From Promethearchaeota archaeon (GTDB lineage Archaea; Asgardarchaeota; Lokiarchaeia; Sigyniarchaeales; SOKP01): 41,575 nucleotides of DNA. The notes under the pieces were generated by a model. It did not search any database. It was not told where the DNA came from and saw only the letters and a program-made list of their open reading frames with translations. The position numbers and the translations under genes are program-made. Of the stretch, positions 5,550-10,186 are shown in pieces (the first letter of the stretch is position 1; each line of letters opens with the position of its first letter). The stretch lies in NCBI GenBank assembly GCA_019894955.1, contig JAGXNQ010000005.1:1-41575 (forward strand), written 5' to 3'.

Positions 5550-6074
5550 TTAATCTTGAGATGCGTAGTAAATAAGCCATTTAGACATAGCTTGAAATGA
5601 CTCTACAATGTTTAAATCCTCTTTTGAGGAGCAAAATACACATTGATTACACTTAGCTTTCTCAGCATAATCATGAGCAACTTCTGGGTCAATTTCATGA
5701 TTTTTCAGATCCCATTTCATCCCTAATAAAATTATTGGAATGAATCCCGCTTTTTGACGAATAATTTTCAACCAATCTGGGACATCTCGAAATGTATCAT
5801 AATCAGTTAAATCAAAACATATAAATGCGCCACTTGCACCCTTGCAATAATCAGGAAGTAATTCTCTAAAGCGTTTTTCACCTGCAAAATCCCATAATTG
5901 CATTTTTACGGTTTCCCCAGTATCTAAAACTTCAGATTTTGTATTAAATCCCGCCCCAATTGTCATTTTATATCTATCTTGGAACTGCCCTGTACAATAT
6001 CTGGTGACCATCGCGGTCTTGCCAACTCCTCCAGCCCCTGCAATGATGACTTTAAATATCCAAGAGTTATACAT
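5550..6074 (-). CDS. Rab-like small GTPase (Ras superfamily)
   Basis: G1 GAGGVGKT, G2 TIG, G3 WDFAGE, variant G4 MKWD, G5 CSSK. Confidence 0.92.
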   Translation of the reverse strand: MYNSWIFKVIIAGAGGVGKTAMVTRYCTGQFQDRYKMTIGAGFNTKSEVLDTGETVKMQLWDFAGEKRFRELLPDYCKGASGAFICFDLTDYDTFRDVPDWLKIIRQKAGFIPIILLGMKWDLKNHEIDPEVAHDYAEKAKCNQCVFCSSKEDLNIVESFQAMSKWLIYYASQD

Positions 6075-6264
6075 GATAAATAGCTTTAATATTGATAATT
6101 ATTTACGAATTTTTTTATATCTCAATAGCTAAATTACAAAACTAGGTTCATAAATAAAAATTTATCTTTTTAATAAATTAACGAAATAAAAAAGGTTTTT
6201 AAGAGATTTAGGTCTATTAATTGTTAGCACTTAATTTTAATAATAAAGGTTGTGAAGAAAGAAC

Positions 6265-6606
6265 ATTAAAGACGACGAGATTTGTCCAATATGTAGTTTT
6301 CCAAAAGAACTATGTATATGTGATAGTTTAAGCGCCGATGAGCAACAAATTATTATTTCTAACGATAAGAGGAAATGGGGGCGTGTCGTTACTGTTATCA
6401 CTTTTGAAGGTAATTTTGATGCAAATCTAAAAGATATTTTGAAAAAAGCAAAACATAAATGCGCGTCAGGAGGAACAATAAGAGATAACGAAATTGAACT
6501 ACAGGGAGATCACAAGTTAAAGATGAAAAAATTTTTGATGGATCAAGGATTTCCCGAAGAAAACATCCTCATACGAGATCGAATAAGCCAATCTTACAAG
6601 AAATAA
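6265..6606 (+). CDS. sui1: Translation initiation factor aIF1 / SUI1 (missed by the ORF track; probable ATT start)
   Basis: Translation IKDDEICPICSFPKELCICDSL...DKRKWGRVVTVI...KHKCASGGTIRDNEIELQGDH, typical of archaeal SUI1; stop TAA 6604-6606; in-frame TGA at 6253 leaves no ATG/GTG/TTG before the conserved N-terminus. Confidence 0.93.
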   Translation: MKDDEICPICSFPKELCICDSLSADEQQIIISNDKRKWGRVVTVITFEGNFDANLKDILKKAKHKCASGGTIRDNEIELQGDHKLKMKKFLMDQGFPEENILIRDRISQSYKK

Positions 6607-6664
6607 TAATAAGGTGTTCGATTAACTAAATATTCGTAATTACTAATCAACAAGTTAGATTTTA

Positions 6665-7099
6665 ATGAGTTTCGTATTCTATAAAGTTATATTTAGAAGT
6701 ATTGGTGAAATGGAGGAATTCTCATTATCTTTAACTTTTAATAATGTAATTTCAGATAAGTACATTAATATGACGCATTATATAACTTCAATAAAGAATT
6801 TGAGTGATTTACATGAAAATGTAATTAATTTCCAAAATATTGAAGAAGTTATCTTAATGGGAGCAAATAGTCACCCTCTCTCATTTAATTATTATATTAT
6901 AATTTTAATAATACATAAAAACGAAAAAAAGGAAGGATATTTAATAGGTAATACTAAAAAATTAGGAGATTTACTGATAGGTACTTGGCCATTTAGTCAA
7001 GATCCAATCAAGACTCAACCAGATAAAATTTTGAAAAGATTTGATGAAATAATCAATAATCCTGGTAATGTTAACAAAATTAGTCTAATTTATTCCTAA
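6665..7099 (+). CDS. Hypothetical protein
   Basis: 144-aa ORF filling the intergenic space; no motif recognised. Confidence 0.6.
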   Translation: MSFVFYKVIFRSIGEMEEFSLSLTFNNVISDKYINMTHYITSIKNLSDLHENVINFQNIEEVILMGANSHPLSFNYYIIILIIHKNEKKEGYLIGNTKKLGDLLIGTWPFSQDPIKTQPDKILKRFDEIINNPGNVNKISLIYS

Positions 7100-8116: not shown

Positions 8117-10186
8117 CTAAGAATTTAACTCTTCCATGAGATAATTTAATTCCTTTGTAGGATCAGTAAATTGAAATTCAGAAACTTTCAGCTCATAATT
8201 GTTCATATCATTAAAATCATTTAATGAAGCTCTTCCACGAACAATTAAGCTACGACCTTCCAAATCTTTTAAAACATCGCTTAAATCTTCCATATCCGCG
8301 ATTTCACTTGCTTTCTTGCCAACCAACTCTTCAGCTTGCTGACCAAAAAAACTGGTTTTTATTGTGCCACTTTCATCATCCAGGACGACTTTTAAGATCA
8401 TTCTTTTCTCTGATTCTTCTTTTTTTTCACATGTACAATTGGTATCCTTTTTAAAGCACGTCGGACAAGCATCATATATGAACAAATCTCTCTTAGATAA
8501 ATCAATTTCCTTTATAATGCTTCCTTTTATTTCAAAAAATCCAATAGAATCAATTGATTCGATTTTTGTTTCCAAAAATTGTGAAGACTTATTTGAACTT
8601 GGTGAGCTTGCTTTCTTTGTAAACTTGATATCTTCATTAATTTTCTCAATTTCAGAAAATTTATTAAAAGTTGCCTCCTTTCTGTCAAACCTCTCATTAT
8701 ACTTAATTCTGACATTTGAAACTAAAACTTTCATCTCATCTGTTAATTTTTCGGCTAATTCTTCCGCTATATCTCTCCATGCAGTCACTCGAATTGAACC
8801 TGTATTATCACTAACTTCAAAATCAAGTACAGACACATCTTCTCCTGATTTAAGAGTAACTTTTCTTATCTCTCCTACAGATGTAATTACACCTTTAAAA
8901 GAAGCGGAGTTTTCAAGGTTTTCGATCTCTTTTATATTTTTAGTAATTGTAGTTTTTAACTTTTCTTCTTTTGGACGTGCTGTAATTTGAATTTCTTCCT
9001 CGATTACATTAATCTCTGAAACTCGATTATAAATAGCTTCTTTTCTGTCAAACATTTCATTGTGTTTAAGATTAACATTTGACACCAACACCGTCATATC
9101 ATTTGTTAATTTTTCGGCTAATTCTTCCGCTTTATCTCTCCATGCAGTCACTCGAATTGAACCTGTATTATCACTAACTTCAAAATCAAGTACAGACACA
9201 TCCTCTCCTGATTTAAGAGTGACTTTTCTCATCTCTCTGACAGATGTTATAACTCCTTTGAAAGATACTAATTTTTCAAGTTCTTGAATAGATTTTATGT
9301 TTTTAGCTATTGCAGCTTTATATTGAACGCTTCCTTTGGTTTTTTTAATAATTGTGTTAGGGGATGCTGTTAGTTCAATTGTTTTCGGATTTAATTTACT
9401 TTCTCGTGGAGAAAGTTGAGTAATAGAAATATTATCTCCTTCTTTTATTCCTTGAATTTTATCAACATCTTCATTCCAAAAAACTATTCTGACAATACCA
9501 GTTGAATCCATTATTTCGATGTTTCCGACTTTTCCTGTGTTTCCATCACTCTTTACAAATTCTTTTACTGGAGTATAACGAAGCACTTGACCCTTAATTG
9601 AATAAGATTTAAAATTCGGAGTAATATCTCCAATTTTCGTAAAGGCTTGCGTTATTTTAGGAATTTTATTATAATCAATATCTTCCGGGGATAAGATAAT
9701 TTTTCCAAAACGCCCAACATGTATTTCTAAATCTTGATATCGACCTTCTTTAGTATACCCATTGATAATTTTTACAACCTCATTTATTACAAAGTTTTCA
9801 TGTGTTAAAATTTTAGTATCTTCATCCCATAAAACGACTCGAATCTCCCCTGATTCATCTTGGATTGAAAATGATCCAACAAATCCTTCACTTCCATCAT
9901 TTCTTGTAAAATTGAATATTTTATTAACATCTTTTATTCTTCCTGCTAAAACAATATTTTTCATCCCAAGGGAAATATCAGAGATCTTAACTTCAATGTT
10001 ACTAATAGCATCTGTATTCTCTTTTTTTACCTCTACTTTTAGCTCTTTTGCTATTAGAAGTAGTGCTCCATCATCAGTAATTAATCCTTTAAGTTCTGCT
10101 TTTTTTTCATCCACAAGATCTTGAATGTCTTTTCGAGATAATCCTGTTTCATCCATAATTTTATTAATATACGATTCTGCTGACAT
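8117..10186 (-). CDS. rpa1: Replication protein A large subunit (multiple OB folds, C-terminal Zn-finger OB)
   Basis: Repeated D(E/S/N)(S/T)G(E/I/S)xRxxxW OB motifs, N-terminal GLITDDGALLLIA, YDACPTCFKK Zn motif. Confidence 0.9.
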   Translation of the reverse strand: MSAESYINKIMDETGLSRKDIQDLVDEKKAELKGLITDDGALLLIAKELKVEVKKENTDAISNIEVKISDISLGMKNIVLAGRIKDVNKIFNFTRNDGSEGFVGSFSIQDESGEIRVVLWDEDTKILTHENFVINEVVKIINGYTKEGRYQDLEIHVGRFGKIILSPEDIDYNKIPKITQAFTKIGDITPNFKSYSIKGQVLRYTPVKEFVKSDGNTGKVGNIEIMDSTGIVRIVFWNEDVDKIQGIKEGDNISITQLSPRESKLNPKTIELTASPNTIIKKTKGSVQYKAAIAKNIKSIQELEKLVSFKGVITSVREMRKVTLKSGEDVSVLDFEVSDNTGSIRVTAWRDKAEELAEKLTNDMTVLVSNVNLKHNEMFDRKEAIYNRVSEINVIEEEIQITARPKEEKLKTTITKNIKEIENLENSASFKGVITSVGEIRKVTLKSGEDVSVLDFEVSDNTGSIRVTAWRDIAEELAEKLTDEMKVLVSNVRIKYNERFDRKEATFNKFSEIEKINEDIKFTKKASSPSSNKSSQFLETKIESIDSIGFFEIKGSIIKEIDLSKRDLFIYDACPTCFKKDTNCTCEKKEESEKRMILKVVLDDESGTIKTSFFGQQAEELVGKKASEIADMEDLSDVLKDLEGRSLIVRGRASLNDFNDMNNYELKVSEFQFTDPTKELNYLMEELNS
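8741..9220. repeat. Near-identical intragenic direct repeat (8741-8857 and 9104-9220; period 363 nt)
   Basis: 115/117 nt identical core within two duplicated OB domains of RPA. Confidence 0.95.

Follow-up and report, generated by a model that had tools for sequence, protein, structure and literature searches.

A probable AUU start codon conserved on the aIF1 gene in a lineage of Asgard archaea, and possible feedback on that gene by its own product

The stretch of DNA analysed here (hereafter the window) comprises 41,575 nucleotides (nt) of contig JAGXNQ010000005.1, assembly GCA_019894955.1, and the element under study is its gene for translation initiation factor aIF1 (SUI1 family), which lies on the forward strand. 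The SUI1 frame is open from 6256 to a TAA stop at 6604-6606, and the coding sequence, counted from an ATT codon at 6265 (6265-6606), comprises 113 codons plus the stop. Matches in Pfam (PF01253, SUI1; E 2.4e-17, 63.6 bits with the cut-off at 25.5), NCBIfam (NF002096; 113.1 bits, cut-off 98) and PDB identify the product. The PDB match is to the aIF1 chain 4mo0, the same protein as in the 30S initiation complexes 5jb3 and 5jbh (E 8.1e-26, residues 5-104), and the protein counted from ATT 6265 is two residues longer at its N-terminus than that solved chain. An N-terminal zinc knuckle, CPIC-x6-CIC, lies at 6283-6321, and all four of its cysteines are invariant among 20 aligned Asgard aIF1 sequences. 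Only one aIF1 copy was found in the assembly (2.77 Mb, 88% complete). By homology, this protein would be expected to bind the 30S subunit and to proofread start codons in this organism. Proteins 76-86% identical to it bear names such as Promethearchaeota and Lokiarchaeota, in agreement with the Asgard placement proposed in a first-pass annotation that had been made from the letters of the window alone.

The 5' end of the frame reads TGA(6253) AGA AAG AAC ATT(6265) AAA GAC GAC GAG ATT TGT CCA ATA TGT. There is no in-frame ATG, GTG or TTG between TGA 6253 and the zinc knuckle; the first-pass annotation had said as much, and our re-reading of the window agrees. The earliest canonical in-frame start is a TTG at 6439-6441 (codon 62 of 116), which would yield only a 55-residue C-terminal fragment, with loss of the zinc knuckle and of about half of the SUI1 domain (6340-6555). 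Upstream of the ATT lies a Shine-Dalgarno (SD)-like sequence, AGGTTGTGA (6247-6255; core GTGA), recognized by its conservation and its match to 16S rRNA and confirmed to end 9 nt before ATT 6265. It is separated from the ATT by a purine-rich spacer (6256-6264) that is variable in sequence and fixed in length, and is preceded by a conserved A/T-rich block, TTTTAATAATAAA (6235-6247), that presumably forms part of the 5' leader or promoter. Two smaller features overlap this region and are present as the first-pass annotation described them: an in-frame TTG-TGA at 6250-6255, and a GTG mini-ORF at 6252-6269 (GTG AAG AAA GAA CAT TAA; five sense codons plus TAA), whose frame is shifted one base upstream relative to that of aIF1 and whose TAA overlaps the ATT by one base.

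The absence of a canonical start is a conserved property of the gene. We searched for aIF1 in 41 relatives, of which 31 gave a match, and in 151 genomes from the order, of which 128 did, fetched the loci and inspected the 60 nt before the first cysteine codon; four loci that met a contig end or a run of N (L019, L050, L057 and L110) were excluded from the family count. Within the family of the window, 74 of the 81 readable loci of the main orthologue, spread over 12 genera, lack any ATG, GTG or TTG in frame from the upstream stop to the zinc knuckle, and they carry ATT (70 loci), ATC (three) or ATA (one) at the start position, behind a GTGA-type ribosome-binding site. Loci without a canonical start make up 33/33 in genus g1, 19/19 in g12, 6/6 in g16, 4/4 in g17, 3/3 in g13, 4/5 in g15, 2/2 in g22, 1/1 in both g19 and g20, 1/5 in g14 and 0/1 in both g18 and g21. 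All 33 readable loci of the window's own genus share its layout. The seven family loci with a canonical codon all have GTG; in six of them this GTG lies four codons upstream of the ATT or ATA, and in one locus (L074) the GTG itself appears to be the aIF1 start. The possibility that the relatives all use ATG, which the first-pass annotation had raised against its own proposal, is therefore answered in the negative.

The same holds for the other objection raised at the outset, a 1-nt indel in the start region. No indel was seen over 6234-6516 in three DNA contigs from two studies and one RNA-library contig, and the related assemblies are concordant. These contigs differ from the window at 5 to 11 positions and hence stem from close relatives or other strains. 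RNA-library contigs from two studies cover aIF1, a sign of expression, although such contigs give no transcript ends, strand or expression level. An apparently split aIF1 gene in a closed genome (G102:C1:1384800-1385433) was set aside, as a run of N covers the N-terminal part of the gene there.

Constraint on the initiation region was analysed in 63 main-ortholog loci of six genera that share the AGGTTGTGA layout. The SD-like sequence is identical in 61 of them and the two variants retain GTGA, while the start codon is ATT in 60 and ATC in three. The spacer is always 9 nt long, with 27 different sequences and no codon periodicity. Immediately downstream of the ATT, variability falls to 0-0.06 at codon positions 1 and 2 and reaches up to 0.64 at position 3; the aIF1 frame is intact and under purifying selection. 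Variation confined to third positions right after the ATT, next to a spacer free of periodicity, fits translation from the ATT six codons before the first cysteine. A start at the ATT directly before that cysteine (MCPLC..., as in some NCBI entries) was considered and misfits the conserved K-D-D-E residues. As a control, a PGDH-like gene of this genome begins with ATA here and in none of the other same-genus loci read (1/20), which have ATG, TTG or GTG; start codons thus turn over among these relatives, whereas the ATT of aIF1 stays. Conservation across 12 genera, coding constraint from the ATT onward, the SD-like sequence upstream and the starts chosen in NCBI entries of relatives together make it very probable that aIF1 is translated from AUU 6265 (6265-6267) read as methionine, as the first-pass annotation had proposed.

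The ribosome-binding site ahead of this codon appears imperfect. A 16S gene was not found in the window's own assembly, and the 16S tails of same-genus genomes were used in its place; in two such genomes the tail reads ...GGATCACCTCCT. When compared by eye with the complement of GGATCACCTCCT, the SD-like sequence matches at seven of nine bases, with two internal mismatches. Among 1720 ORFs of this genome whose first canonical start is near the ORF boundary, the distance from GTGA to the start is most often 6-7 nt (62 and 37 cases), with 17 cases of 9 nt; the aIF1 spacing is within the genome's range and off its peak, and both the mismatches and the spacing are conserved. The two comparison spacings given in the first-pass annotation were also recovered, namely GTGA + 7 nt + ATG at a 534-residue ORF (57-1661) and GTGA + 4 nt + ATG at a 689-residue ORF ending at 10186 on the minus strand. 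No conserved RNA structure was found that could mask the SD or the start: RNAalifold on 52 unique sequences retains only a hairpin within the coding region, and the window's own 5-bp GUUGU/ACGAC helix is not conserved (fold z-score -1.4). A search of 5900-6900 for Rfam elements, SECIS included, found none.

Weak or non-canonical starts on aIF1 extend beyond this family. The sister family has ATG, GTG, TTG or ATA as the homologous codon, which stands before CCN AAR. A phylum-wide search detected PF01253 in 188 of 201 genomes, and 56 loci were chosen by hand to represent families outside the order; six of these were unreadable, as no zinc knuckle was found. Twelve of the 50 readable loci have no canonical start, and the other 38 have ATG or GTG and, in a few cases, TTG. 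The loci without a canonical start include those with CTG behind a GGAG-type SD in family f9 (L128, L133-L137), with CTG or ATA behind a GGAG/AGGAGG-type SD in family f6 (L118-L119), and with AGGAGG + 9 nt + ATA in families f11 (L141) and f17 (L154-L155), as well as one locus of family f16 (L152). We also scanned species genomes of many archaeal phyla with an Asgard-derived profile and read the best 80 matches, a biased sample in which the nearest in-frame start of the 73 readable loci is ATG in 53, GTG in 11 and TTG in five, with none in four (one Baldrarchaeum, one Thorarchaeota, one other archaeon and one Hadarchaeota). Within this sample, weak and non-canonical aIF1 starts are concentrated in Asgard archaea.

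The searches brought out some further observations on the distribution of the gene. Some genomes of the family hold a second aIF1 copy (L084-L090, L108), 56-62% identical, with a near-perfect SD in the arrangement GAGGTGA + 8 nt + ATT or ATA, in which a GTG inside the SD is in frame; these second copies may be paralogues or contamination. aIF1 was not found in eight of the 41 same-genus genomes (G004, G009, G012, G017, G018, G023, G024 and G099), some of which are 98-100% complete. In two genomes (G007 and G104), aIF1 lies about 10 kb from the 16S gene, and loss of rRNA-linked contigs in binning may explain the missing genes.

A screen of the whole genome indicated that aIF1 is one of many genes with such starts. 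We collected ORFs whose first canonical start lies far inside, filtered them for overlap to remove shadow ORFs, and then read their 5' ends. This yielded 85 non-shadowed ORFs with the first canonical start at least 30 codons in, several dozen of which look real as judged from their translations. Many of these real-looking genes have GGTGA + ~6 nt + ATT or ATA and no canonical start; from their translations, read without a family search, they resemble an ABC ATPase, a JAB-domain protein, a PAN ATPase, hydrolases, a transporter and uL16. Examples in this genome (G000), most of them with GGTGA or GGTG as the SD, are C49 2992-4200(-), C186 13411-14205(+), C190 8685-9893(-), C10 6215-7120(-), C193 9649-10581(+) and C223 6070-7512(+). 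Two further ORFs (C166 6704-7486(+) and C222 26828-27565(+)) have no canonical start, and no GGTGA/GGTG-type SD was seen ahead of them. Among 117 cases in which GGTGA + 5-7 nt opens a frame of at least 100 codons, the codon at that position is ATG in 38, ATT in 15, TTG in nine, AAA in eight, ATA in seven and GTG in two, compared to 12 ATT and 10 ATA among 194 cases at control spacings. A GDPD-like gene has no canonical start in two of nine loci. From these sequences, non-canonical starts appear to be a habit of the lineage, with aIF1 as the most deeply conserved case among those examined. One more ORF seen in the course of the screen (C192:3225-4196, minus strand) resembles, from its translation, selenophosphate synthetase and begins SCKLG... 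directly after a stop; this stop may be a selenocysteine codon.

An AUU start on the gene of a factor that polices start codons raises the question of feedback, which the first-pass annotation had put forward by analogy with IF3 and eIF1. In such a scheme, the 16S tail would pair with the imperfect SD AGGUUGUGA, 9 nt upstream, and thereby place the 30S subunit at AUU 6265, where the initiator Met-tRNA would pair with AUU through a third-base mismatch. aIF1 would then destabilise these AUU initiation complexes, such that initiation on its own mRNA would fall when aIF1 is abundant and rise when it is scarce; mismatches in the SD and the long spacing would further weaken the site. Any discrimination against AUU by the aIF1 of this lineage should, with AUU on its own gene, give negative feedback by construction. 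Passages of PMC4705826 and PMC6237735 report that 30S subunits of S. solfataricus bind both AUG and AUU mRNA without aIF1 and only AUG mRNA with it, and that IF3, with its AUU start, and eIF1, with its poor context, are autoregulated through their own starts. The idea of feedback gains from the AUU discrimination reported in vitro in passages of PMC4705826, and from the recurrence of weak aIF1 starts in other Asgard families. Functional negative feedback through the AUU of aIF1 seems plausible by this analogy, at about even odds, and we assign a probability of roughly 0.5 to the AUU start and the feedback taken together.

Several observations weigh against this interpretation. At the SD-defined start positions of this genome, ATT ranks second after ATG, and the many real-looking genes with GGTGA followed by ATT or ATA mean that the weak codon is not rare elsewhere, as it would be in an infC-type system: ATT and ATA account for 15 and seven of the 117 cases above, versus 38 for ATG. 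The uniqueness that marks the AUU of infC is thus lost for aIF1. Non-canonical starts are also shared among relatives in other genes, as in a ZIP-like gene (eight of nine loci without a canonical start) and a PAN-like paralogue (ATA in three of 20 loci read, these being this genome and its two closest orthologues). The relatives within the family are not independent of one another, so that the count of 74 in 81 loci overstates the number of evolutionary events. Moreover, the discrimination against AUU that we suppose here would carry over from Sulfolobus, another lineage, as described in passages of the papers cited above. Because ATT and ATA starts are frequent, AUU is perhaps fairly efficient in this organism, and the conservation at aIF1 could reflect tuning of expression without feedback.

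These points lead to the strongest competing explanation, in which AUU, AUA and AUC are ordinary, moderately efficient starts in this lineage that aIF1 shares with many other genes, perhaps just for low expression. We regard this as a real possibility of somewhat less than even weight. It draws on the rank of ATT among SD-defined starts, on the several dozen late-start ORFs that look like real genes, and on the conservation of non-canonical starts in genes other than aIF1. Set against it, any discrimination by aIF1 against AUU, such as passages of PMC4705826 describe for Sulfolobus, makes feedback automatic. The aIF1 ATT is kept across 12 genera while the start of the PGDH-like control gene turns over, other Asgard families independently carry CTG or ATA on aIF1, and ATG is nearest in the majority (53/73) of readable loci in the archaeal-phyla sample.

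A second alternative assigns a role to the mini-ORF: translation would begin at GTG 6252 and then shift by +1 at CAU-UAA-A, in the style of prfB or antizyme, or terminate and reinitiate at the overlapping AUU. The mini-ORF and its overlapping stop are indeed present in 58 of the 63 main-ortholog loci, NTG-TGA overlaps of like kind occur in genera g5, g13 and g15, and a passage of PMC8211752 relates that an earlier annotation of aIF1 in S. solfataricus had the gene interrupted by a frameshift. However, the remaining five loci break the pattern: L095 and L076 carry a shortened mini-ORF, and in the three ATC loci it runs on for 14 codons with no overlapping stop. Three loci (L061, L079 and L080) have no upstream NTG at all and yet keep the ATT, and the ATH codon is kept throughout. 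There is no conserved slippery site, the mini-ORF varies most at second codon positions, and the 1-2 nt between the SD-like AGG and the GTG are too few for the AGG to act as its SD. As in prfB (RF2) and antizyme, a short upstream ORF ends at a stop with the main frame at +1; here, in contrast to those systems, some of the relatives that retain ATH do not conserve the upstream ORF, its stop or any shift site, and the conserved zero-frame ORF, shift site and stop that characterize a programmed +1 frameshift are lacking. Since the mini-ORF is lost in loci that keep the ATT, we rate frameshifting and reinitiation low. The GTG belongs to the SD core, and an ATT followed by an AAA or AGN codon creates the overlapping stop. 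The mini-ORF is probably incidental, and both it and the TTG-TGA, which does not serve as a functional start, are by-products of the SD and of ATT-AAA, not conserved parts.

A third alternative is a leaderless mRNA that starts at or next to A6265, with TTTTAATAATAAA as a TATA box and AGGTTGTGA as a promoter-proximal or operator element in place of an SD. Counting against the AUU-plus-SD interpretation here, the A/T-rich block is 60-90% conserved at -30 to -18 from the ATT (54 unique sequences from 62 loci), which is where the TATA box of a leaderless transcript would sit, given the usual archaeal distance from TATA box to start. In addition, AGGTTGTGA is more invariant than would be required of an SD. 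Nevertheless, an SD at 7-11 nt precedes the non-canonical aIF1 start in every Asgard family examined. Position profiles around the starts in this genome contain an SD signal rich in G but nothing TATA-like at -27, which speaks against a genome that is mainly leaderless. At 97% identity, one RNA-library contig continues as far as 6242, 23 nt upstream of the ATT, with the flanking genes uncovered at that identity; its extent is weak evidence, as contigs cannot show ends. To our knowledge, leaderless initiation is generally reported to require a canonical start codon at the 5' end. We consider a leaderless aIF1 mRNA quite unlikely.

Finally, an artefact or a dead gene (assembly error, pseudogene, or read-through of TGA 6253 from TTG 6250) has a negligible chance of being correct: some public entries do render TTG-TGA as MW..., the outcome of a code in which TGA is Trp, but sequencing error is ruled out by the same layout in 63 independent, concordant assemblies of six genera and by the gap-free contigs, the frame under purifying selection is the sole aIF1 found in the genome, and read-through or recoding is ruled out since no SECIS matched, a TAA or TAG follows the TGA in most sister-genus loci, so that two or three stops would need to be crossed, and in one locus (L077) TAG replaces the TTG itself.

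Returning to an AUU start coupled to feedback, the closest known parallel is bacterial infC, which encodes IF3. In both cases, the gene of a factor that polices start codons begins with AUU behind an SD, and the conserved non-AUG/GUG/UUG start on the fidelity factor's own gene that defines the infC type is found here in the 74 family loci described above. The two differ in that the IF3 fold is unrelated to aIF1 and in that feedback has been demonstrated for IF3 and is proposed here. Besides infC, very few E. coli genes are known to begin with AUU, in contrast to the common use of ATT and ATA starts in this genome. A further likeness would lie in the mechanism, as passages of PMC4705826 and PMC4611024 report that IF3 rejects AUU-type codons and that a low level of the factor leads to more synthesis.

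Eukaryotic eIF1 (SUI1) has a homologous SUI1 domain and, according to passages of PMC4705826 and PMC6237735, a conserved sub-optimal initiation site on its own mRNA. There, however, the AUG is kept and the weakness is one of Kozak context and scanning, in contrast to the non-AUG codon and SD placement seen here. The archaeal aIF1 proteins studied so far (M. jannaschii, 4mo0; P. abyssi, 5jb3/5jbh; S. solfataricus) share the domain and the zinc knuckle with the protein of the window; its gene, with a conserved AUU, differs from most loci of the archaeal-phyla sample, in which ATG is nearest. A full-text literature search found no description of a non-canonical start or of autoregulation for an archaeal aIF1 gene. 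As a broader and doubtful extension, near-cognate aIF1 starts (AUU, AUC or AUA here, CUG or AUA elsewhere) that are repeated or ancestral in Asgard archaea might act as a homeostat of start-codon stringency across the cell, whose relaxed and regulated setting would allow a sizeable set of genes with AUU and AUA starts, and the self-limiting logic of eIF1 might then have been inherited from an archaeal ancestor rather than have arisen in eukaryotes.

The unusual start has consequences for annotation. The expectation in the first-pass annotation that gene callers would miss or truncate the gene is borne out for one part of the public record: entries of the Joint Genome Institute (JGI) and the European Nucleotide Archive (ENA) are shortened to 70-90 residues, of the same kind as the fragment from TTG 6439, and it is ENA entries that give the MW... 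rendering. It fails for another, as NCBI entries of relatives already begin at the ATT (MKDDEICPIC), under the pipeline name YciH-like. Five predicted proteins of relatives (P0001, P0004 and P0009-P0011) begin MW(R/K)K..., with TGA read as Trp, which resembles an artefact of the code applied by the gene caller to short AT-rich contigs. aIF1 is a universal marker, and in these genomes Prodigal-type callers truncate or mis-translate it. More generally, ATT and ATA starts appear frequent enough in the lineage to affect the annotation of many proteins.

Bacteria, with IF3, and eukaryotes, with eIF1, are both known to regulate a fidelity factor by feedback through the weak start site of its own gene. 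A conserved AUU start on archaeal aIF1 would add the third domain to this list, and would do so in the archaea closest to eukaryotes; the initiation region at 6240-6300 would also offer a concrete system in which AUU can be compared with AUG as aIF1 is titrated.

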